Shown here piece by piece: positions 24,006-40,210 of a stretch of 40,210 nt of DNA. The notes under the pieces were generated by a model. It made no database searches and was not told the DNA's origin. It saw only the letters and a program-made list of their open reading frames with translations. Numbering within the stretch: position 1 is the stretch's first letter; every line of letters begins with the position of its first letter. The stretch is from Escherichia phage T7, in the sequence record LR745709; one strand, 5' to 3'. A program made the translations under genes and the position numbers.

Positions 24006-24160
24006 TGCTGGGGGTGGCCTCAACGGTCGCTGCTAGTCCCGAAGAGGCGAGTGTTACTTCAACAGAAGAAACCTTAACGCCAGCACAGGAGGCCGCACGC
24101 ACCCGCGCTGCTAACAAAGCCCGAAAGGAAGCTGAGTTGGCTGCTGCCACCGCTGAGTAA
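22968..24160 (+). CDS. 10: Gene 10B, minor capsid protein by -1 ribosomal frameshift near the 10A stop
   Basis: Slippery G GTT TTC AAA (about 23986-23994) just before the 10A stop; the -1 frame stays open to TAA at 24158-24160. Confidence 0.6.
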
Positions 24161-24842: not shown

Positions 24843-27227
24843 ATGGCACTCATTAGCCAATCAATCAAGAACTTGAAGGGTGGTATCAGCCAACAGCCTG
24901 ACATCCTTCGTTATCCAGACCAAGGGTCACGCCAAGTTAACGGTTGGTCTTCGGAGACCGAGGGCCTCCAAAAGCGTCCACCTCTTGTTTTCTTAAATAC
25001 ACTTGGAGACAACGGTGCGTTAGGTCAAGCTCCGTACATCCACCTGATTAACCGAGATGAGCACGAACAGTATTACGCTGTGTTCACTGGTAGCGGAATC
25101 CGAGTGTTCGACCTTTCTGGTAACGAGAAGCAAGTTAGGTATCCTAACGGTTCCAACTACATCAAGACCGCTAATCCACGTAACGACCTGCGAATGGTTA
25201 CTGTAGCAGACTATACGTTCATCGTTAACCGTAACGTTGTTGCACAGAAGAACACAAAGTCTGTCAACTTACCGAATTACAACCCTAATCAAGACGGATT
25301 GATTAACGTTCGTGGTGGTCAGTATGGTAGGGAACTAATTGTACACATTAACGGTAAAGACGTTGCGAAGTATAAGATACCAGATGGTAGTCAACCTGAA
25401 CACGTAAACAATACGGATGCCCAATGGTTAGCTGAAGAGTTAGCCAAGCAGATGCGCACTAACTTGTCTGATTGGACTGTAAATGTAGGGCAAGGGTTCA
25501 TCCATGTGACCGCACCTAGTGGTCAACAGATTGACTCCTTCACGACTAAAGATGGCTACGCAGACCAGTTGATTAACCCTGTGACCCACTACGCTCAGTC
25601 GTTCTCTAAGCTGCCACCTAATGCTCCTAACGGCTACATGGTGAAAATCGTAGGGGACGCCTCTAAGTCTGCCGACCAGTATTACGTTCGGTATGACGCT
25701 GAGCGGAAAGTTTGGACTGAGACTTTAGGTTGGAACACTGAGGACCAAGTTCTATGGGAAACCATGCCACACGCTCTTGTGCGAGCCGCTGACGGTAATT
25801 TCGACTTCAAGTGGCTTGAGTGGTCTCCTAAGTCTTGTGGTGACGTTGACACCAACCCTTGGCCTTCTTTTGTTGGTTCAAGTATTAACGATGTGTTCTT
25901 CTTCCGTAACCGCTTAGGATTCCTTAGTGGGGAGAACATCATATTGAGTCGTACAGCCAAATACTTCAACTTCTACCCTGCGTCCATTGCGAACCTTAGT
26001 GATGACGACCCTATAGACGTAGCTGTGAGTACCAACCGAATGGCAATCCTTAAGTACGCCGTTCCGTTCTCAGAAGAGTTACTCATCTGGTCCGATGAAG
26101 CACAATTCGTCCTGACTGCCTCGGGTACTCTCACATCTAAGTCGGTTGAGTTGAACCTAACGACCCAGTTTGACGTACAGGACCGAGCGAGACCTTTTGG
26201 GATTGGGCGTAATGTCTACTTTGCTAGTCCGAGGTCCAGCTTCACGTCCATCCACAGGTACTACGCTGTGCAGGATGTCAGTTCCGTTAAGAATGCTGAG
26301 GACATTACATCACACGTTCCTAACTACATCCCTAATGGTGTGTTCAGTATTTGCGGAAGTGGTACGGAAAACTTCTGTTCGGTACTATCTCACGGGGACC
26401 CTAGTAAAATCTTCATGTACAAATTCCTGTACCTGAACGAAGAGTTAAGGCAACAGTCGTGGTCTCATTGGGACTTTGGGGAAAACGTACAGGTTCTAGC
26501 TTGTCAGAGTATCAGCTCAGATATGTATGTGATTCTTCGCAATGAGTTCAATACGTTCCTAGCTAGAATCTCTTTCACTAAGAACGCCATTGACTTACAG
26601 GGAGAACCCTATCGTGCCTTTATGGACATGAAGATTCGATACACGATTCCTAGTGGAACATACAACGATGACACATTCACTACCTCTATTCATATTCCAA
26701 CAATTTATGGTGCAAACTTCGGGAGGGGCAAAATCACTGTATTGGAGCCTGATGGTAAGATAACCGTGTTTGAGCAACCTACGGCTGGGTGGAATAGCGA
26801 CCCTTGGCTGAGACTCAGCGGTAACTTGGAGGGACGCATGGTGTACATTGGGTTCAACATTAACTTCGTATATGAGTTCTCTAAGTTCCTCATCAAGCAG
26901 ACTGCCGACGACGGGTCTACCTCCACGGAAGACATTGGGCGCTTACAGTTACGCCGAGCGTGGGTTAACTACGAGAACTCTGGTACGTTTGACATTTATG
27001 TTGAGAACCAATCGTCTAACTGGAAGTACACAATGGCTGGTGCCCGATTAGGCTCTAACACTCTGAGGGCTGGGAGACTGAACTTAGGGACCGGACAATA
27101 TCGATTCCCTGTGGTTGGTAACGCCAAGTTCAACACTGTATACATCTTGTCAGATGAGACTACCCCTCTGAACATCATTGGGTGTGGCTGGGAAGGTAAC
27201 TACTTACGGAGAAGTTCCGGTATTTAA
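24843..27227 (+). CDS. 12: Gene 12, tail tubular protein B (nozzle, 794 aa)
   Basis: ORF MALISQSIKNLKGGISQQPDILRYPDQGSRQVNGW... preceded by taaggaggctc. Confidence 0.97.
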   Translation: MALISQSIKNLKGGISQQPDILRYPDQGSRQVNGWSSETEGLQKRPPLVFLNTLGDNGALGQAPYIHLINRDEHEQYYAVFTGSGIRVFDLSGNEKQVRYPNGSNYIKTANPRNDLRMVTVADYTFIVNRNVVAQKNTKSVNLPNYNPNQDGLINVRGGQYGRELIVHINGKDVAKYKIPDGSQPEHVNNTDAQWLAEELAKQMRTNLSDWTVNVGQGFIHVTAPSGQQIDSFTTKDGYADQLINPVTHYAQSFSKLPPNAPNGYMVKIVGDASKSADQYYVRYDAERKVWTETLGWNTEDQVLWETMPHALVRAADGNFDFKWLEWSPKSCGDVDTNPWPSFVGSSINDVFFFRNRLGFLSGENIILSRTAKYFNFYPASIANLSDDDPIDVAVSTNRMAILKYAVPFSEELLIWSDEAQFVLTASGTLTSKSVELNLTTQFDVQDRARPFGIGRNVYFASPRSSFTSIHRYYAVQDVSSVKNAEDITSHVPNYIPNGVFSICGSGTENFCSVLSHGDPSKIFMYKFLYLNEELRQQSWSHWDFGENVQVLACQSISSDMYVILRNEFNTFLARISFTKNAIDLQGEPYRAFMDMKIRYTIPSGTYNDDTFTTSIHIPTIYGANFGRGKITVLEPDGKITVFEQPTAGWNSDPWLRLSGNLEGRMVYIGFNINFVYEFSKFLIKQTADDGSTSTEDIGRLQLRRAWVNYENSGTFDIYVENQSSNWKYTMAGARLGSNTLRAGRLNLGTGQYRFPVVGNAKFNTVYILSDETTPLNIIGCGWEGNYLRRSSGI

Positions 27228-33500: not shown

Positions 33501-34552
33501 TAGGGACCTTGAAGTATTCAACACAGGAACTGGCTGCTCGCTCTCCGTGGACTAAGCTACTGAACGGAACCACTAACTACCTTCTGGATGCTGCGCGTCA
33601 AGGTATGCTTGGGGATGTTATTAGTGCCACCCTAACAGGTAAGACTACCCGCTGGGAGAAAGAAGGCTTCCTTCGTGGTGCCTCCGTAACTCCTGAGCAG
33701 ATGGCTGGCATCAAGTCTCTCATCAAGGAACATATGGTACGCGGTGAGGACGGGAAGTTTACCGTTAAGGACAAGCAAGCGTTCTCTATGGACCCACGGG
33801 CTATGGACTTATGGAGACTGGCTGACAAGGTAGCTGATGAGGCAATGCTGCGTCCACATAAGGTGTCCTTACAGGATTCCCATGCGTTCGGAGCACTAGG
33901 TAAGATGGTTATGCAGTTTAAGTCTTTCACTATCAAGTCCCTTAACTCTAAGTTCCTGCGAACCTTCTATGATGGATACAAGAACAACCGAGCGATTGAC
34001 GCTGCGCTGAGCATCATCACCTCTATGGGTCTCGCTGGTGGTTTCTATGCTATGGCTGCACACGTCAAAGCATACGCTCTGCCTAAGGAGAAACGTAAGG
34101 AGTACTTGGAGCGTGCACTGGACCCAACCATGATTGCCCACGCTGCGTTATCTCGTAGTTCTCAATTGGGTGCTCCTTTGGCTATGGTTGACCTAGTTGG
34201 TGGTGTTTTAGGGTTCGAGTCCTCCAAGATGGCTCGCTCTACGATTCTACCTAAGGACACCGTGAAGGAACGTGACCCAAACAAACCGTACACCTCTAGA
34301 GAGGTAATGGGCGCTATGGGTTCAAACCTTCTGGAACAGATGCCTTCGGCTGGCTTTGTGGCTAACGTAGGGGCTACCTTAATGAATGCTGCTGGCGTGG
34401 TCAACTCACCTAATAAAGCAACCGAGCAGGACTTCATGACTGGTCTTATGAACTCCACAAAAGAGTTAGTACCGAACGACCCATTGACTCAACAGCTTGT
34501 GTTGAAGATTTATGAGGCGAACGGTGTTAACTTGAGGGAGCGTAGGAAATAA
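30596..34552 (+). CDS. 16: Gene 16, internal virion core protein with N-terminal lytic transglycosylase domain (1318 aa)
   Basis: N-terminal SLT-like motif (...AWTESRFVPTAKSKTGPLGMMQFTKATAKALG...). Largest ORF in the window. Confidence 0.97.
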   Translation: MDKYDKNVPSDYDGLFQKAADANGVSYDLLRKVAWTESRFVPTAKSKTGPLGMMQFTKATAKALGLRVTDGPDDDRLNPELAINAAAKQLAGLVGKFDGDELKAALAYNQGEGRLGNPQLEAYSKGDFASISEEGRNYMRNLLDVAKSPMAGQLETFGGITPKGKGIPAEVGLAGIGHKQKVTQELPESTSFDVKGIEQEATAKPFAKDFWETHGETLDEYNSRSTFFGFKNAAEAELSNSVAGMAFRAGRLDNGFDVFKDTITPTRWNSHIWTPEELEKIRTEVKNPAYINVVTGGSPENLDDLIKLANENFENDSRAAEAGLGAKLSAGIIGAGVDPLSYVPMVGVTGKGFKLINKALVVGAESAALNVASEGLRTSVAGGDADYAGAALGGFVFGAGMSAISDAVAAGLKRSKPEAEFDNEFIGPMMRLEARETARNANSADLSRMNTENMKFEGEHNGVPYEDLPTERGAVVLHDGSVLSASNPINPKTLKEFSEVDPEKAARGIKLAGFTEIGLKTLGSDDADIRRVAIDLVRSPTGMQSGASGKFGATASDIHERLHGTDQRTYNDLYKAMSDAMKDPEFSTGGAKMSREETRYTIYRRAALAIERPELQKALTPSERIVMDIIKRHFDTKRELMENPAIFGNTKAVSIFPESRHKGTYVPHVYDRHAKALMIQRYGAEGLQEGIARSWMNSYVSRPEVKARVDEMLKELHGVKEVTPEMVEKYAMDKAYGISHSDQFTNSSIIEENIEGLVGIENNSFLEARNLFDSDLSITMPDGQQFSVNDLRDFDMFRIMPAYDRRVNGDIAIMGSTGKTTKELKDEILALKAKAEGDGKKTGEVHALMDTVKILTGRARRNQDTVWETSLRAINDLGFFAKNAYMGAQNITEIAGMIVTGNVRALGHGIPILRDTLYKSKPVSAKELKELHASLFGKEVDQLIRPKRADIVQRLREATDTGPAVANIVGTLKYSTQELAARSPWTKLLNGTTNYLLDAARQGMLGDVISATLTGKTTRWEKEGFLRGASVTPEQMAGIKSLIKEHMVRGEDGKFTVKDKQAFSMDPRAMDLWRLADKVADEAMLRPHKVSLQDSHAFGALGKMVMQFKSFTIKSLNSKFLRTFYDGYKNNRAIDAALSIITSMGLAGGFYAMAAHVKAYALPKEKRKEYLERALDPTMIAHAALSRSSQLGAPLAMVDLVGGVLGFESSKMARSTILPKDTVKERDPNKPYTSREVMGAMGSNLLEQMPSAGFVANVGATLMNAAGVVNSPNKATEQDFMTGLMNSTKELVPNDPLTQQLVLKIYEANGVNLRERRK

Positions 34553-34572
34553 TACGACTCACTATAGGGAGA
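34550..34572 (+). promoter_or_regulatory. T7 promoter phi17 (class III); also drives the inserted trxA
   Basis: taatacgactcactatagggaga; +1 near 34567. No other promoter lies between it and trxA. Confidence 0.93.
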
Positions 34573-34624
34573 GGCGAAATAATCTTCTCCCTGTAGTCTC
34601 TTAGATTTACTTTAAGGAGGTCAA

Positions 34625-36280
34625 ATGGCTAACGTAATTAAAACCGTTTTGACTTACCAGTTAGATGGCTCCAATCGTGATTTTAATATCCCGTTTGAGT
34701 ATCTAGCCCGTAAGTTCGTAGTGGTAACTCTTATTGGTGTAGACCGAAAGGTCCTTACGATTAATACAGACTATCGCTTTGCTACACGTACTACTATCTC
34801 TCTGACAAAGGCTTGGGGTCCAGCCGATGGCTACACGACCATCGAGTTACGTCGAGTAACCTCCACTACCGACCGATTGGTTGACTTTACGGATGGTTCA
34901 ATCCTCCGCGCGTATGACCTTCACGTCGCTCAGATTCAAACGATGCACGTAGCGGAAGAGGCCCGTGACCTCACTGCGGATACTATCGGTGTCAATAACG
35001 ATGGTCACTTGGATGCTCGTGGTCGTCGAATTGTGAACCTAGCGAACGCCGTGGATGACCGCGATGCTGTTCCGTTTGGTCAACTAAAGACCATGAACCA
35101 GAACTCATGGCAAGCACGTAATGAAGCCTTACAGTTCCGTAATGAGGCTGAGACTTTCAGAAACCAAGCGGAGGGCTTTAAGAACGAGTCCAGTACCAAC
35201 GCTACGAACACAAAGCAGTGGCGCGATGAGACCAAGGGTTTCCGAGACGAAGCCAAGCGGTTCAAGAATACGGCTGGTCAATACGCTACATCTGCTGGGA
35301 ACTCTGCTTCCGCTGCGCATCAATCTGAGGTAAACGCTGAGAACTCTGCCACAGCATCCGCTAACTCTGCTCATTTGGCAGAACAGCAAGCAGACCGTGC
35401 GGAACGTGAGGCAGACAAGCTGGAAAATTACAATGGATTGGCTGGTGCAATTGATAAGGTAGATGGAACCAATGTGTACTGGAAAGGAAATATTCACGCT
35501 AACGGGCGCCTTTACATGACCACAAACGGTTTTGACTGTGGCCAGTATCAACAGTTCTTTGGTGGTGTCACTAATCGTTACTCTGTCATGGAGTGGGGAG
35601 ATGAGAACGGATGGCTGATGTATGTTCAACGTAGAGAGTGGACAACAGCGATAGGCGGTAACATCCAGTTAGTAGTAAACGGACAGATCATCACCCAAGG
35701 TGGAGCCATGACCGGTCAGCTAAAATTGCAGAATGGGCATGTTCTTCAATTAGAGTCCGCATCCGACAAGGCGCACTATATTCTATCTAAAGATGGTAAC
35801 AGGAATAACTGGTACATTGGTAGAGGGTCAGATAACAACAATGACTGTACCTTCCACTCCTATGTACATGGTACGACCTTAACACTCAAGCAGGACTATG
35901 CAGTAGTTAACAAACACTTCCACGTAGGTCAGGCCGTTGTGGCCACTGATGGTAATATTCAAGGTACTAAGTGGGGAGGTAAATGGCTGGATGCTTACCT
36001 ACGTGACAGCTTCGTTGCGAAGAGCTCTGGTTGGACTGAGGTATGGCAAGGCTCTGCTGGTGGTGGTGTTTCAGTAAGCCTCTCACAGGATGTCCGCTGG
36101 AGAACTATCTGGATTCTAGCTAATAATGGCATGTGTTCTGTTCAGATTGGAGCTGATGCTACTTACTTCATGGTGGTTATGGGTGGTTGGTTGAAGTTCA
36201 CAATTTCCAACAACGGGAGAACTTTCCGTAACGACCAAGATCGAAATACAGTACCTAAGCAAATCTTAGTTCGAAACTAA
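34625..36280 (+). CDS. 17: Gene 17, tail fibre protein (551 aa): T7-type N-terminus and shaft with a divergent C-terminal receptor-binding tip
   Basis: MANVIKTVLTYQLDGSNRDFNIPFEYLARKF... through ...GGKWLDAYLRDSFVAKS is T7 gp17. From about residue 468 the sequence (SGWTEVWQGSAGGGVSVSLSQDVRWRTIWILANNGMCSVQIGADATYFMVVMGGWLKFTISNNGRTFRNDQDRNTVPKQILVRN) departs from the T7 tip as I recall it, and the gene is 2 codons shorter. Confidence 0.93.
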   Translation: MANVIKTVLTYQLDGSNRDFNIPFEYLARKFVVVTLIGVDRKVLTINTDYRFATRTTISLTKAWGPADGYTTIELRRVTSTTDRLVDFTDGSILRAYDLHVAQIQTMHVAEEARDLTADTIGVNNDGHLDARGRRIVNLANAVDDRDAVPFGQLKTMNQNSWQARNEALQFRNEAETFRNQAEGFKNESSTNATNTKQWRDETKGFRDEAKRFKNTAGQYATSAGNSASAAHQSEVNAENSATASANSAHLAEQQADRAEREADKLENYNGLAGAIDKVDGTNVYWKGNIHANGRLYMTTNGFDCGQYQQFFGGVTNRYSVMEWGDENGWLMYVQRREWTTAIGGNIQLVVNGQIITQGGAMTGQLKLQNGHVLQLESASDKAHYILSKDGNRNNWYIGRGSDNNNDCTFHSYVHGTTLTLKQDYAVVNKHFHVGQAVVATDGNIQGTKWGGKWLDAYLRDSFVAKSSGWTEVWQGSAGGGVSVSLSQDVRWRTIWILANNGMCSVQIGADATYFMVVMGGWLKFTISNNGRTFRNDQDRNTVPKQILVRN

Positions 36281-36385
36281 CTTCGGGGCGCGCGGCGTCT
36301 GTGACCACCTGATTCTTGAGTAGCGGGGCCGAAAGGCCCCGCCAAGGCAACCGACGGAACGGCCACACGATTAAGGAGGTAACCC
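36281..36385 (+). other. Inserted GC-rich linker with GNRA-capped hairpin and strong RBS, upstream of trxA
   Basis: Perfect 8-bp stem gcggggcc-gaaa-ggccccgc (36323-36342) with no U-tract, then ttaaggaggtaaccc-ATG. About 65-70% GC versus about 48% for the phage. Not part of the wild-type 17/17.5 intergenic region. Confidence 0.8.
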
Positions 36386-36718
36386 ATGAGCGATAAAATC
36401 ATTCACCTGACCGATGACTCTTTTGATACCGACGTGCTGAAAGCTGATGGTGCAATTCTGGTTGATTTCTGGGCAGAGTGGTGCGGCCCTTGCAAAATGA
36501 TCGCTCCAATCCTGGACGAAATTGCGGACGAATATCAGGGTAAGCTGACTGTGGCCAAACTGAACATTGACCAGAACCCTGGCACCGCACCGAAATACGG
36601 TATCCGTGGCATCCCAACTCTGCTGCTGTTCAAAAACGGTGAAGTGGCAGCAACCAAAGTAGGCGCTCTGTCTAAAGGCCAACTGAAAGAGTTCCTGGAC
36701 GCCAACCTGGCTTAATGA
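36386..36718 (+). CDS. trxA: Thioredoxin 1 (109 aa), identical in protein to E. coli TrxA, ending in tandem stops TAA TGA; inserted cargo gene
   Basis: [109 protein letters not shown], with the WCGPC active site. Sits between gene 17 and gene 17.5, where T7 has no gene. Confidence 0.97.
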
Positions 36719-36776
36719 TTGGTAAATCACAAGGAAAGACGTGTAGTCCACGGATGGACTCTCAAGGAGGTACAAG

Positions 36777-36980
36777 GTGCTATCATTAGACTTTAACAAC
36801 GAATTGATTAAGGCTGCTCCAATTGTTGGGACGGGTGTAGCAGATGTTAGTGCTCGACTGTTCTTTGGGTTAAGCCTTAACGAATGGTTCTACGTTGCTG
36901 CTATCGCCTACACAGTGGTTCAGATTGGTGCCAAGGTAGTCGATAAGATGATTGACTGGAAGAAAGCCAATAAGGAGTGA
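36777..36980 (+). CDS. 17.5: Gene 17.5, class II holin (67 aa), GTG start
   Basis: MLSLDFNNELIKAAPIVGTGVADVSARLFFGLSLNEWFYVAAIAYTVVQIGAKVVDKMIDWKKANKE, preceded by caaggaggtacaag. Confidence 0.9.
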   Translation: MLSLDFNNELIKAAPIVGTGVADVSARLFFGLSLNEWFYVAAIAYTVVQIGAKVVDKMIDWKKANKE

Positions 36981-36985
36981 TATGT

Positions 36986-37255
36986 ATGGAAAAGGATAAG
37001 AGCCTTATTACATTCTTAGAGATGTTGGACACTGCGATGGCTCAGCGTATGCTTGCGGACCTTTCGGACCATGAGCGTCGCTCTCCGCAACTCTATAATG
37101 CTATTAACAAACTGTTAGACCGCCACAAGTTCCAGATTGGTAAGTTGCAGCCGGATGTTCACATCTTAGGTGGCCTTGCTGGTGCTCTTGAAGAGTACAA
37201 AGAGAAAGTCGGTGATAACGGTCTTACGGATGATGATATTTACACATTACAGTGA
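36986..37255 (+). CDS. 18: Gene 18, terminase small subunit (89 aa)
   Basis: ATG at 36986 after taaggagtgatatgt. MEKDKSLITFLEMLDTAMAQRMLADLSDHERRSPQLYNAINKLLDRHKF... Confidence 0.88.
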   Translation: MEKDKSLITFLEMLDTAMAQRMLADLSDHERRSPQLYNAINKLLDRHKFQIGKLQPDVHILGGLAGALEEYKEKVGDNGLTDDDIYTLQ

Positions 37256-37257
37256 TA

Positions 37258-37300
37258 TACTCAAGGCCACTACAGATAGTGGTCTTTATGGATGTCATTG
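37258..37300 (+). promoter_or_regulatory. RNase III processing hairpin R18.5
   Basis: tatactcaaggccactacagatagtggtctttatgga, the same motif family as other T7 RNase III sites. Confidence 0.6.
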
Positions 37301-37349
37301 TCTATACGAGATGCTCCTACGTGAAATCTGAAAGTTAACGGGAGGCATT

Positions 37350-37781
37350 ATGCTAGAATTTTTACGTAAGCTAATCCCTTGGGTTCTCGCTGGGATGCTA
37401 TTCGGGTTAGGATGGCATCTAGGGTCAGACTCAATGGACGCTAAATGGAAACAGGAGGTACACAATGAGTACGTTAAGAGAGTTGAGGCTGCGAAGAGCA
37501 CTCAAAGAGCAATCGATGCGGTATCTGCTAAGTATCAAGAAGACCTTGCCGCGCTGGAAGGGAGCACTGATAGGATTATTTCTGATTTGCGTAGCGACAA
37601 TAAGCGGTTGCGCGTCAGAGTCAAAACTACCGGAACCTCCGATGGTCAGTGTGGATTCGAGCCTGATGGTCGAGCCGAACTTGACGACCGAGATGCTAAA
37701 CGTATTCTCGCAGTGACCCAGAAGGGTGACGCATGGATTCGTGCGTTACAGGATACTATTCGTGAACTGCAACGTAAGTAG
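37350..37781 (+). CDS. 18.5: Gene 18.5, Rz-like i-spanin (143 aa)
   Basis: N-terminal transmembrane segment (LIPWVLAGMLFGLGWHLG) then coiled-coil-like periplasmic domain. Contains the embedded gene 18.7. Confidence 0.88.
   Translation: MLEFLRKLIPWVLAGMLFGLGWHLGSDSMDAKWKQEVHNEYVKRVEAAKSTQRAIDAVSAKYQEDLAALEGSTDRIISDLRSDNKRLRVRVKTTGTSDGQCGFEPDGRAELDDRDAKRILAVTQKGDAWIRALQDTIRELQRK
37465..37716 (+). CDS. 18.7: Gene 18.7, Rz1-like o-spanin lipoprotein embedded in gene 18.5 (83 aa)
   Basis: +1-frame ORF wholly inside gene 18.5, with a lipobox-like LICVATISGC and Pro-rich mature part. Confidence 0.78.
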   Translation: MSTLRELRLRRALKEQSMRYLLSIKKTLPRWKGALIGLFLICVATISGCASESKLPEPPMVSVDSSLMVEPNLTTEMLNVFSQ

Positions 37782-37802
37782 GAAATCAAGTAAGGAGGCA
37801 AT

Positions 37803-39563
37803 GTGTCTACTCAATCCAATCGTAATGCGCTCGTAGTGGCGCAACTGAAAGGAGACTTCGTGGCGTTCCTATTCGTCTTATGGAAGGCGCTAAACCTACC
37901 GGTGCCCACTAAGTGTCAGATTGACATGGCTAAGGTGCTGGCGAATGGAGACAACAAGAAGTTCATCTTACAGGCTTTCCGTGGTATCGGTAAGTCGTTC
38001 ATCACATGTGCGTTCGTTGTGTGGTCCTTATGGAGAGACCCTCAGTTGAAGATACTTATCGTATCAGCCTCTAAGGAGCGTGCAGACGCTAACTCCATCT
38101 TTATTAAGAACATCATTGACCTGCTGCCATTCCTATCTGAGTTAAAGCCAAGACCCGGACAGCGTGACTCGGTAATCAGCTTTGATGTAGGCCCAGCCAA
38201 TCCTGACCACTCTCCTAGTGTGAAATCAGTAGGTATCACTGGTCAGTTAACTGGTAGCCGTGCTGACATTATCATTGCGGATGACGTTGAGATTCCGTCT
38301 AACAGCGCAACTATGGGTGCCCGTGAGAAGCTATGGACTCTGGTTCAGGAGTTCGCTGCGTTACTTAAACCGCTGCCTTCCTCTCGCGTTATCTACCTTG
38401 GTACACCTCAGACAGAGATGACTCTCTATAAGGAACTTGAGGATAACCGTGGGTACACAACCATTATCTGGCCTGCTCTGTACCCAAGGACACGTGAAGA
38501 GAACCTCTATTACTCACAGCGTCTTGCTCCTATGTTACGCGCTGAGTACGATGAGAACCCTGAGGCACTTGCTGGGACTCCAACAGACCCAGTGCGCTTT
38601 GACCGTGATGACCTGCGCGAGCGTGAGTTGGAATACGGTAAGGCTGGCTTTACGCTACAGTTCATGCTTAACCCTAACCTTAGTGATGCCGAGAAGTACC
38701 CGCTGAGGCTTCGTGACGCTATCGTAGCGGCCTTAGACTTAGAGAAGGCCCCAATGCATTACCAGTGGCTTCCGAACCGTCAGAACATCATTGAGGACCT
38801 TCCTAACGTTGGCCTTAAGGGTGATGACCTGCATACGTACCACGATTGTTCCAACAACTCAGGTCAGTACCAACAGAAGATTCTGGTCATTGACCCTAGT
38901 GGTCGCGGTAAGGACGAAACAGGTTACGCTGTGCTGTACACACTGAACGGTTACATCTACCTTATGGAAGCTGGAGGTTTCCGTGATGGCTACTCCGATA
39001 AGACCCTTGAGTTACTCGCTAAGAAGGCAAAGCAATGGGGAGTCCAGACGGTTGTCTACGAGAGTAACTTCGGTGACGGTATGTTCGGTAAGGTATTCAG
39101 TCCTATCCTTCTTAAACACCACAACTGTGCGATGGAAGAGATTCGTGCCCGTGGTATGAAAGAGATGCGTATTTGCGATACCCTTGAGCCAGTCATGCAG
39201 ACTCACCGCCTTGTAATTCGTGATGAGGTCATTAGGGCCGACTACCAGTCCGCTCGTGACGTAGACGGTAAGCATGACGTTAAGTACTCGTTGTTCTACC
39301 AGATGACCCGTATCACTCGTGAGAAAGGCGCTCTGGCTCATGATGACCGATTGGATGCCCTTGCGTTAGGCATTGAGTATCTCCGTGAGTCCATGCAGTT
39401 GGATTCCGTTAAGGTCGAGGGTGAAGTACTTGCTGACTTCCTTGAGGAACACATGATGCGTCCTACGGTTGCTGCTACGCATATCATTGAGATGTCTGTG
39501 GGAGGAGTTGATGTGTACTCTGAGGACGATGAGGGTTACGGTACGTCTTTCATTGAGTGGTGA
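37803..39563 (+). CDS. 19: Gene 19, terminase large subunit (DNA maturase B, 586 aa), GTG start
   Basis: Walker-A-like FRGIGKSF near the N-terminus, C-terminal nuclease-type region. Preceded by taaggaggcaat. Confidence 0.96.
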
Positions 39564-39644
39564 TTTATGCATTAGGACTGCATAGGGATGCACTATAGAC
39601 CACGGATGGTCAGTTCTTTAAGTTACTGAAAAGACACGATAAAT

Positions 39645-39667
39645 TAATACGACTCACTATAGGGAGA
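39645..39667 (+). promoter_or_regulatory. T7 promoter phiOR
   Basis: taatacgactcactatagggaga; +1 near 39662. Confidence 0.93.
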
Positions 39668-39821
39668 GGAGGGACGAAAGGTTACTATATAGATACTGAA
39701 TGAATACTTATAGAGTGCATAAAGTATGCATAATGGTGTACCTAGAGTGACCTCTAAGAATGGTGATTATATTGTATTAGTATCACCTTAACTTAAGGAC
39801 CAACATAAAGGGAGGAGACTC

Positions 39822-39971
39822 ATGTTCCGCTTATTGTTGAACCTACTGCGGCATAGAGTCACCTACCGATTTCTTGTGGTACTTTGTGCTGCCCTTGGGT
39901 ACGCATCTCTTACTGGAGACCTCAGTTCACTGGAGTCTGTCGTTTGCTCTATACTCACTTGTAGCGATTAG
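39822..39971 (+). CDS. 19.5: Gene 19.5, small hydrophobic protein (49 aa)
   Basis: ATG at 39822 after aaagggaggagactc. MFRLLLNLLRHRVTYRFLVVLCAALGYASLTGDLSSLESVVCSILTCSD. Confidence 0.7.
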   Translation: MFRLLLNLLRHRVTYRFLVVLCAALGYASLTGDLSSLESVVCSILTCSD

Positions 39972-40039
39972 GGTCTTCCTGACCGACTGATGGCTCACCG
40001 AGGGATTCAGCGGTATGATTGCATCACACCACTTCATCC

Positions 40040-40210
40040 CTATAGAGTCAAGTCCTAAGGTATACCCATAAAGAGCCTCTAATGGTCTATCCTAAGGTCT
40101 ATACCTAAAGATAGGCCATCCTATCAGTGTCACCTAAAGAGGGTCTTAGAGAGGGCCTATGGAGTTCCTATAGGGTCCTTTAAAATATACCATAAAAATC
40201 TGAGTGACTA
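40040..40210. repeat. Right-end short repeat array abutting the (absent) right terminal repeat
   Basis: Imperfect cctaa(a/g)g-type repeats (cctaaggtatacc, cctaaggtctatacctaaagatagg, cacctaaagaggg). Window ends ...aaaatctgagtgacta, where the right terminal repeat would start. Confidence 0.75.

Follow-up and report, generated by a model that had tools for sequence, protein, structure and literature searches.

The closest described system is phPM, a T7 derivative reported by Grigonyte et al. (2020, Viruses 12:193; PMC7077284) under project PRJEB35760, the project number being the only accession cited. According to Table S4 of that paper phPM carries residues 1-466 of gp17 joined to residues 485-569 of Yep-phi gp17, followed by trxA, and a single extra SNV is given for it in Table S6, 26041 A>G (I>M). 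The authors grew T7 on E. coli BW25113 ΔtrxA with a recombination plasmid and selected the progeny on ΔtrxA cells, on which growth of the trxA phages was reported (PMC7077284); T7 DNA polymerase gp5 depends on host thioredoxin as its processivity subunit (PMC7077284, PMC6962156). The sister constructs are LR745706 (T7 Δg17::trxA) and LR745707 and LR745708 (T7 gp17-Mtd fusions), which are non-infective unless the fibre is supplied in trans, the Yep-phi chimera being the only one of the authors' constructs that still infects E. coli (PMC7077284). A further relevant system is the diversity-generating retroelement (DGR) of Bordetella phage BPP-1, whose target requirements are a (GC)14 element, a 21-bp IMH and a GC stem of 8-10 bp with a GAAA loop (PMC3240598); a heterologous coding sequence directly upstream of these elements is sufficient in cis for mutagenic homing (Guo et al. 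2011, PMC3240598).

The window analysed here, the whole 40,210-nucleotide stretch of record LR745709, is almost certainly a laboratory-built T7 derivative corresponding to phPM; the construct is already known, having been published in 2020. The features that bear on this are, in order along the window:

26042, + strand: A>G in gp12 (tail tubular protein B), I400M; absent from the parent LR745710
34550-34572, + strand: class III promoter phi17 (TAATACGACTCACTATAGGGAGA), an exact consensus match; annotated as phi17 at 34566 of NC_001604
34625-36280, + strand: chimeric gene 17 encoding 551 aa before the stop; T7 gp17 supplies residues 1-466, the Yep-phi gp17 tip residues 467-551
34922, + strand: A>C, giving N100H in the N-terminal portion of the gp17 fibre; absent from the parental LR745710
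34976, + strand: A>G, gp17 T118A; differs from NC_001604, identical in LR745710
36023-36277, + strand: receptor-binding tip domain, gp17 residues 485-569 from Yep-phi, a phage of Yersinia pestis, with a TAA stop codon directly after it, at 36278-36280
36257, + strand: G>A, tip E545K (Yep-phi E563K); differs from natural Yep-phi and from the designed g-block
36281-36360, + strand: 80-bp segment of Bordetella phage BPP-1 (3' end of mtd VR1), matching NC_005357 at 79 of 80 nt
36284-36297, + strand: (GC)14 element, identical to BPP-1 VR1
36298-36318, + strand: 21-bp IMH element, identical to BPP-1 VR1
36320-36322, + strand: mtd stop codon TAG, in the BPP-1 segment
36323-36342, + strand: 8-bp GC stem with GAAA loop, identical to BPP-1 VR1
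36355, + strand: T>C changing the avd start from ATG to ACG, in the BPP-1 segment
36361-36385, + strand: synthetic linker whose Shine-Dalgarno sequence, AAGGAGG (36373-36379), ends 6 nt short of the trxA ATG
36386-36718, + strand: recoded E. coli trxA (ORF 36386-36715), 109 codons, double stop TAA TGA
36719-36980, + strand: native T7 sequence, 100% identical to T7 from 36286 onward, beginning right past where gene 17 formerly had its stop
36777-36980, + strand: gene 17.5 (holin), with its own ribosome-binding site within the resumed T7 sequence; gp17.5 identical to T7

By blastn against NC_001604, positions 1-36115 of the window match T7 1-36114 at 99.9% identity, with 37 differences of which all but five lie in the swapped tip beyond 36022, and positions 36718-40210 match T7 36285-39777 at 100%. 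Away from the tail-fibre locus the window departs from this reference at three positions only, 1897 (+A), 24158 (C>T) and 26042 (A>G); the changes at 1897 and 24158 also occur in LR745710, the authors' wild-type stock, against which the only substitutions outside the cassette are gp12 I400M and gp17 N100H. With gene 17 excluded, and from a list without the frameshift-joined products 0.6B, 5.5-5.7 and 10B, the translations of 55 T7 CDS are identical except for gp12 I400M, gp5 being among the unchanged proteins. The T7 RNA polymerase promoters, comprising six exact class III consensus sites and weaker class II sites, are all found at T7 positions +1. Collinearity, near-identity and the promoter set alike place the window within Escherichia phage T7 (Teseptimavirus T7). 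The original prediction of a genome collinear with T7 outside the tail-fibre locus, with its essential ORFs and the early anti-defence genes 0.3, 0.7 and 5.9 intact, was thus borne out, and the many differences scattered across the genome, which it had named as the mark of a divergent natural phage, are absent. Its statement that all the change lies in one place holds for the non-T7 DNA, confined to a single block at 36023-36717 within the phi17 transcription unit, but not for I400M and N100H, which fall outside the cassette.

The tip swap that had been predicted is confirmed. The first mismatch to T7 occurs at 36023, i.e., codon 467; 36020-36278 is 99.6% identical to gene 17 of Yep-phi (NC_023715 / HQ333270) and 259/261 nt match over 36020-36280. 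Residues 467-551 of the chimera equal Yep-phi 485-569 save for E545K, placing the junction at gp17 466/Yep-phi 485, and the tip matches the published Yep-phi g-block apart from machine-reading errors and position 36257; no phage record holds it at 100% identity. The tip protein is 52-53% identical to T7 tips; the chimeric gp17 aligns full-length to the T7 gp17 structures 7boz and 4a0t, with one single-residue gap in residues 467-551, so that the whole T7-family tip (a beta-sandwich, PDB 4A0T) is alignable. The chimeric fibre would be expected to keep the tail-attachment domain, shaft and pyramid domain of T7, with the exchange limited to the receptor-touching C-terminal beta-sandwich.

The trxA cassette, likewise predicted, is present and its product is identical to E. 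coli TrxA (WP_001280776), including the CGPC motif. At the DNA level it differs from the E. coli gene by 46 nt in 45 codons, all synonymous, and its nucleotide identity is 86.1% to each of 5,426 E. coli genomes; compared with trxA in LR745706, LR745707 and LR745708 it shows 0 differences. The published trxA g-block (Figure S7, PMC7077284) aligns to 36386-36809 except for three lost single bases, explicable by machine reading of the PDF. A natural trxA orthologue was rejected because the gene is equal to this synthetic fragment and to the trxA of the sister constructs. The linker in front of it has no match in T7, BPP-1 or E. coli.

These observations bear on whether the window could instead be a natural T7-like recombinant, which obtained a Yep-phi-like tip by phage recombination and captured a host thioredoxin gene. 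Tip domains are exchanged in nature among T7-like phages, according to PMC8043750, and an all-synonymous trxA could in principle be an enterobacterial orthologue, that of Salmonella being ~84% identical. However, the trxA DNA is that of a published synthetic fragment, which no E. coli genome approaches more closely than stated above, and between it and the tip lie 80 bp of an unrelated Bordetella phage with the avd start knocked out. The left junction lies inside a 5-nt stretch common to T7 and Yep-phi at codons 466-467, the right junction comes directly behind where the stop codon of the former gene 17 stood, a double stop closes trxA, and the rest of the genome is two bases from a laboratory stock. 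A natural origin is effectively refuted, and we return to the laboratory-built phPM.

With regard to expression, no further T7 promoter was found between phi17 and phiOR (39645); gene 17, trxA and 17.5-19 therefore form one late transcription unit, and the tip swap and trxA both lie within it, as had been proposed. A scan of 34400-37100 gave no more sigma-70-like or terminator-like sites than shuffled sequence did, with none in the cassette and no terminator-like site between phi17 and trxA, and following this result the idea that trxA has expression signals of its own beyond the ribosome-binding site was dropped. Having no promoter of its own, trxA would be carried on the phi17 transcript together with gene 17 and would be translated by means of the Shine-Dalgarno sequence in front of it.

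The original prediction of two foreign features at the locus was right as to the tip and trxA but not as to their number, as a third piece, the BPP-1 IMH/hairpin, lies between them. Its IMH is of the VR type and not the IMH* of the template repeat. Apart from the 80-bp segment and the (GC)14 inside it, the window has no BPP-1 matches. Since there is no template repeat, brt or avd, the non-T7 DNA is confined to the one block and the avd start reads ACG, this is a bare target signal and not a DGR, and diversification of the tip is impossible unless avd, brt and a matching engineered template are supplied in trans. No DGR use of this phage is described in the paper (PMC7077284). Although the 8-bp GC hairpin is genuine, the lack of a T run behind it led to its rejection as a terminator; the RNA fold of 36278-36400 gave overall no structure above shuffled controls (z = -0.46).

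What the window shares with phPM is the gp17 466/Yep-phi 485 fusion, the synthetic trxA directly downstream, the homology arm HR2 and gp12 I400M, position 26041 of Table S6 being 26042 of the window; the variants of its parental stock are those of LR745710. In view of these matches in junctions, trxA fragment and gp12, the prediction that this is an engineered T7 derivative of laboratory origin, and not a new natural system, can be accepted. Found in the window and not in the description of phPM are the 80-bp BPP-1 piece and the actual linker and ribosome-binding site, as well as N100H and E545K, which are missing from Table S6. The supplement lists the plasmid parts as "RBS (B0034), trxA", where the window instead has the AAGGAGG site and the BPP-1 segment, and the published Yep-phi g-block ends AAT TAA TAA joined straight to T7, unlike the end seen in the window; taken literally, therefore, the parts list does not describe the phage that was sequenced. 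The B0034 label is printed for all plasmids and LR745706-8 also lack B0034, and we thus treat this mismatch as loose documentation.

The window might instead be an in silico chimera assembled from reads of T7, a plasmid and other phages, with no real phage behind it. The sequence is a short-read SPAdes assembly and, by assembly convention, lacks the right terminal repeat; however, both junctions are in frame and as designed, the fusion ORF is uninterrupted, and plaques were PCR-screened and the phage propagated by the authors (PMC7077284). Such an artefact is vanishingly improbable beside a real phPM, which would have arisen from a plasmid bearing short T7 homology arms around the Yep-phi tip, the BPP-1 IMH/hairpin, and the ribosome-binding site with synthetic trxA, a double crossover having exchanged gene 17 codons 467-553 for the cassette.

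Two purposes had been suggested for pairing trxA with a new tip. The first, a selection marker during the fibre swap, agrees with the positive selection on E. coli ΔtrxA stated by the authors (PMC7077284): on a ΔtrxA host, replication would be restricted to phages making their own thioredoxin, and selection for trxA would enrich the tip swap because marker and swap are physically linked. The second, a self-supplied cofactor for a new host, is not the purpose they describe. It could be maintained that T7 was engineered mainly for a Yersinia host, with trxA as insurance should the new thioredoxin fail with gp5; the tip does derive from a Y. pestis phage, and reprogramming T7 host range by fibre swaps, Yersinia included, is an established aim (Ando et al., summarised in PMC8234382). 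Yet the authors name trxA as the marker and report infection for E. coli only (PMC7077284), and the same cassette is carried by the fibreless LR745706 and by the non-functional Mtd fusions, which fits a marker and not a new-host cofactor. A Yersinia-directed design is accordingly very unlikely, and the marker explanation is preferred.

Three substitutions, at 26042, 34922 and 36257, had been overlooked in the original prediction; all are non-synonymous and all are in tail genes. I400M is carried by no other phage record in the collection searched, and the exact 61-nt context of the change at 34922 occurs in 0 of 148 T7-like records. E545K aligns with T7 N546, two residues past V544, which PMC8043750 assigns to the exterior HI loop of the tip. 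A DGR origin for E545K was rejected, the change being G>A and template and reverse transcriptase both missing from the window. N100H and E545K either went uncounted in Table S6 as lying in the modified gene, or indicate that the window comes from another isolate or passage of this construct. T118A, shared with the wild-type stock, is a laboratory-stock variant unrelated to the engineering. That the spontaneous substitutions fall, three out of three, in the adsorption apparatus hints at what a Yep-phi-tipped T7 fibre needs on E. coli.

A tentative joint reading, to which we would give somewhat less than an even chance, is that the IMH/hairpin was placed deliberately behind the tip, creating a "DGR-ready" T7 whose tip could be diversified in vivo with BPP-1 Avd, Brt and a matching template in trans, and, separately, that I400M, N100H and E545K are compensatory and may let the Yersinia-phage tip work on E. 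coli. Neither the deliberate placement nor the compensatory role is stated in PMC7077284. That the deposited genome holds a DGR target signal missing from the paper may be of minor interest to phage engineers. For genome scanning the outcome is mainly a negative result: the pairing of a foreign tip with a bacterial thioredoxin reflects human design and not a natural host-jump strategy, and a construct of the phPM type should not be scored as a discovery.

The modular exchange of gp17 among T7-like phages is reportedly the subject of Ando et al. 2015, Yosef et al. 2017 and Yehl et al. 2019, works said to have used yeast-based genome assembly, plasmid packaging or loop mutagenesis. Closer to the window are LR745706, LR745707 and LR745708, which share its backbone, recoded trxA, right junction and gp17 1-466 breakpoint but bear BPP-1 Mtd domains or lack a fibre altogether, and have a different linker with the ribosome-binding site. 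The BPP-1 IMH/hairpin is also present in LR745707 and LR745708; there the IMH lies within the mtd reading frame, whereas in the window it lies past the stop of the Yep-phi tip. The DGR target cassettes of Guo et al. 2011 (PLoS Genet 7:e1002414) have the same layout, a foreign coding sequence immediately before the IMH/hairpin, but the window contains neither a template repeat nor avd or brt. The three gp17 exchange studies likewise exchange gp17, whole or C-terminal, with the aim of retaining virion assembly and altering receptor recognition; unlike them, the window is a tip-only swap made by plasmid recombination with trxA selection.

A comparison of the window with the T7 reference NC_001604 by blastn gave two collinear blocks in all: window 1–36115 corresponds to T7 1–36114, and window 36718–40210 matches T7 36285–39777 with 100% identity. 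The following differences were recorded.

Differences between the window and NC_001604
1897: extra A
24158: C>T
26042: A>G
34922: A>C
34976: A>G
36023 onward: dense mismatches

gp12 I400M was the only protein change among the 55 annotated T7 proteins compared, a set from which gene 17 was set aside and which excludes the joined frameshift products 0.6B, 5.5-5.7 and 10B; gp0.3, gp0.7, gp5 and gp5.9 were unchanged. The T7 promoters all lie at their map positions, with a perfect phi17 promoter at 34550–34572, and no T7 RNA polymerase promoter-like sites were found between phi17 and phiOR (39645). The original prediction, which placed all visible change at the tail-fibre locus of an otherwise collinear T7 genome, is correct as regards the backbone and the location of the changes, and the observation is confirmed. 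At the right end the sequence stops at T7 39777, so that the 160-bp right terminal repeat is missing from the window; a copy of the repeat is present at 1–160, and its absence on the right is an assembly convention seen likewise in 39,778-bp T7 records.

The changes at 1897, 24158 and 34976 (gp17 T118A) are also present in LR745710, the wild-type stock of Grigonyte et al. (2020; PMC7077284), and hence are laboratory-stock variants and not engineering. The extra A at 1897 falls in the 0.6B region, and the C>T at 24158 puts a stop in place of the final sense codon in the 10B frameshift product.

The foreign DNA occupies 36023–36717 and is made up of three pieces: a fibre tip, a segment of Bordetella phage BPP-1, and a linker with trxA. 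The swapped tip (gene 17 codons 467–551) consists of residues 485–569 of gp17 from Yersinia phage Yep-phi, bar one substitution, in a fusion ORF of 551 aa that runs without interruption. The fusion protein can be aligned over its full length to solved T7 gp17 structures, the swapped part being the C-terminal tip, which shares only 52–53% identity with T7 tips. Following the description of the gp17 domains (PMC8043750), the 466/467 breakpoint would retain the attachment, shaft and pyramid parts of T7 and exchange only the receptor-contacting beta-sandwich. Window 36272–36280 reads AAC TAA, followed by a segment of Bordetella phage BPP-1, whereas the printed Yep-phi g-block (Figure S7) of Grigonyte et al. 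(2020; PMC7077284) ends AAT TAA TAA with T7 sequence directly after; as the fragment ends differ from those in print, the version used to make the phage was evidently another, or a later, one.

The BPP-1 piece, which lies between the stop of the chimeric gene 17 and trxA, was unnoticed in the original prediction. It comprises 80 bp at 36281–36360, immediately behind the TAA stop, of which 79 are identical to BPP-1.

Parts of the BPP-1 segment (36281–36360)
(GC)14 and the 21-bp IMH, ending the mtd variable region
mtd stop codon
8-bp GC stem with a GAAA loop
first bases of avd, with ATG changed to ACG

This set of cis elements, placed just 3′ of a heterologous gene, suffices to direct the mutagenic homing of a diversity-generating retroelement (DGR) to that gene (Guo et al., 2011; PMC3240598); it is the cis signal by which a DGR is targeted to the sequence upstream. 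No template repeat, avd or brt was found in the window, and the signal is thus inert by itself. For phPM, the T7/Yep-phi hybrid phage of PMC7077284, no IMH, hairpin or DGR is mentioned in that paper, be it in the main text or in the supplement. Deliberate placing of the segment is plausible, though unproven, given that it begins three bases ahead of (GC)14, lies after a non-Mtd tip and has the avd start knocked out.

Downstream lies a 109-codon trxA ending TAA TGA, with AAGGAGG in a short linker six bases ahead of its start. It encodes E. coli TrxA without a single amino-acid change, whilst its DNA carries 46 differences from the E. coli gene, which are spread over 45 codons and are without exception synonymous; against each of 5,426 complete E. 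coli genomes the identity is 86.1%. Ahead of trxA, the linker with its ribosome-binding site (36361–36385; GGCCACACGATTAAGGAGGTAACCC) is unlike those of the sister constructs, in which the trxA leaders (L001 3680–3710, L002 3750–3782 and L005 1490–1513, labels for the stretches compared) are taken from the leader native to gene 17, GATTTACTTTAAGGAGGTCAA; the ‘B0034’ site in the plasmid table of the paper matches neither. That the phage is a natural recombinant is excluded by four features: a trxA of synthetic origin, a piece of Bordetella phage in which a start codon has been edited, a right junction at which T7 sequence restarts exactly past the old gene 17 stop position together with an engineered double stop, and a backbone only two bases from the laboratory stock. 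An assembly chimera is unlikely, as the junctions are in frame and as designed and plaque PCR was carried out by the authors (PMC7077284).

From its sequence, trxA carries its own ribosome-binding site and lacks a promoter of its own, and no terminator-like site was found between gene 17 and trxA, which places the gene in the phi17 late transcript. T7 DNA polymerase requires thioredoxin, and T7 consequently cannot propagate on ΔtrxA E. coli (PMC7077284, PMC6962156); gp5 is intact in the window. Selection would work through the physical linkage of the trxA marker to the tip swap. The authors do not describe the other purpose originally proposed, namely a move to a new host with a replication cofactor that the phage supplies itself, and the same cassette is found in fibre-less and non-functional constructs.

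In comparison with the parental stock and, for the tip, with its natural or designed form, the phage has three substitutions.

Substitutions private to the window, and their status in the SNV table of PMC7077284
26042: gp12 I400M, listed
34922: gp17 N100H, absent
36257: tip E545K, absent

All three are non-synonymous and confined to the adsorption-apparatus genes 12 and 17, which make up ~10% of the genome, and none was found in any other phage record searched. Tip E545K aligns to T7 N546, two residues beyond V544 of the exterior HI loop. T7 adapting to altered LPS gathers substitutions in gp11, gp12 and gp17 (PMC6962156), and some hosts favour positively charged replacements in exterior gp17 loops (PMC8043750). 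A reasonable reading is that the substitutions may be compensatory, adapting the hybrid fibre to E. coli; this remains a hint, as there are three events only, one possibly derived from synthetic DNA. Together with the undocumented DGR target signal, they offer small leads.

The best database matches of the window were the T7 records LR745706, LR745707 and LR745708, which come from Grigonyte et al. (2020; PMC7077284); their trxA has the same location and 0 differences from that of the window, and their gene 17 is annotated as gp17 1–466 fused to BPP-1 Mtd. The printed trxA g-block aligns to window 36386–36809 with three single-base dropouts and nothing else, which we attribute to machine-read PDF errors since real ones would break the reading frame. 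In that study recombinants were obtained by growing T7 on plasmid-bearing ΔtrxA cells and selected on ΔtrxA cells, at first with the wild-type fibre supplied in trans; every screened plaque of the listed mutants was recombinant, and the Yep-phi hybrid was alone in infecting E. coli without help (PMC7077284). phPM, built with plasmid pAG32, is the sole T7/Yep-phi hybrid in the paper, its layout being gp17 1–466 joined to Yep-phi gp17 485–569 and then trxA, with one extra SNV reported, 26041 A>G (I>M) (PMC7077284). The prediction of an engineered T7, in which trxA is the marker used to select for a linked tail-fibre tip swap, is supported by this agreement, and the construct is already known, having been published in 2020: the window and phPM share the trxA, the same breakpoint, the same tip and the same SNV (26042, gp12 I400M).
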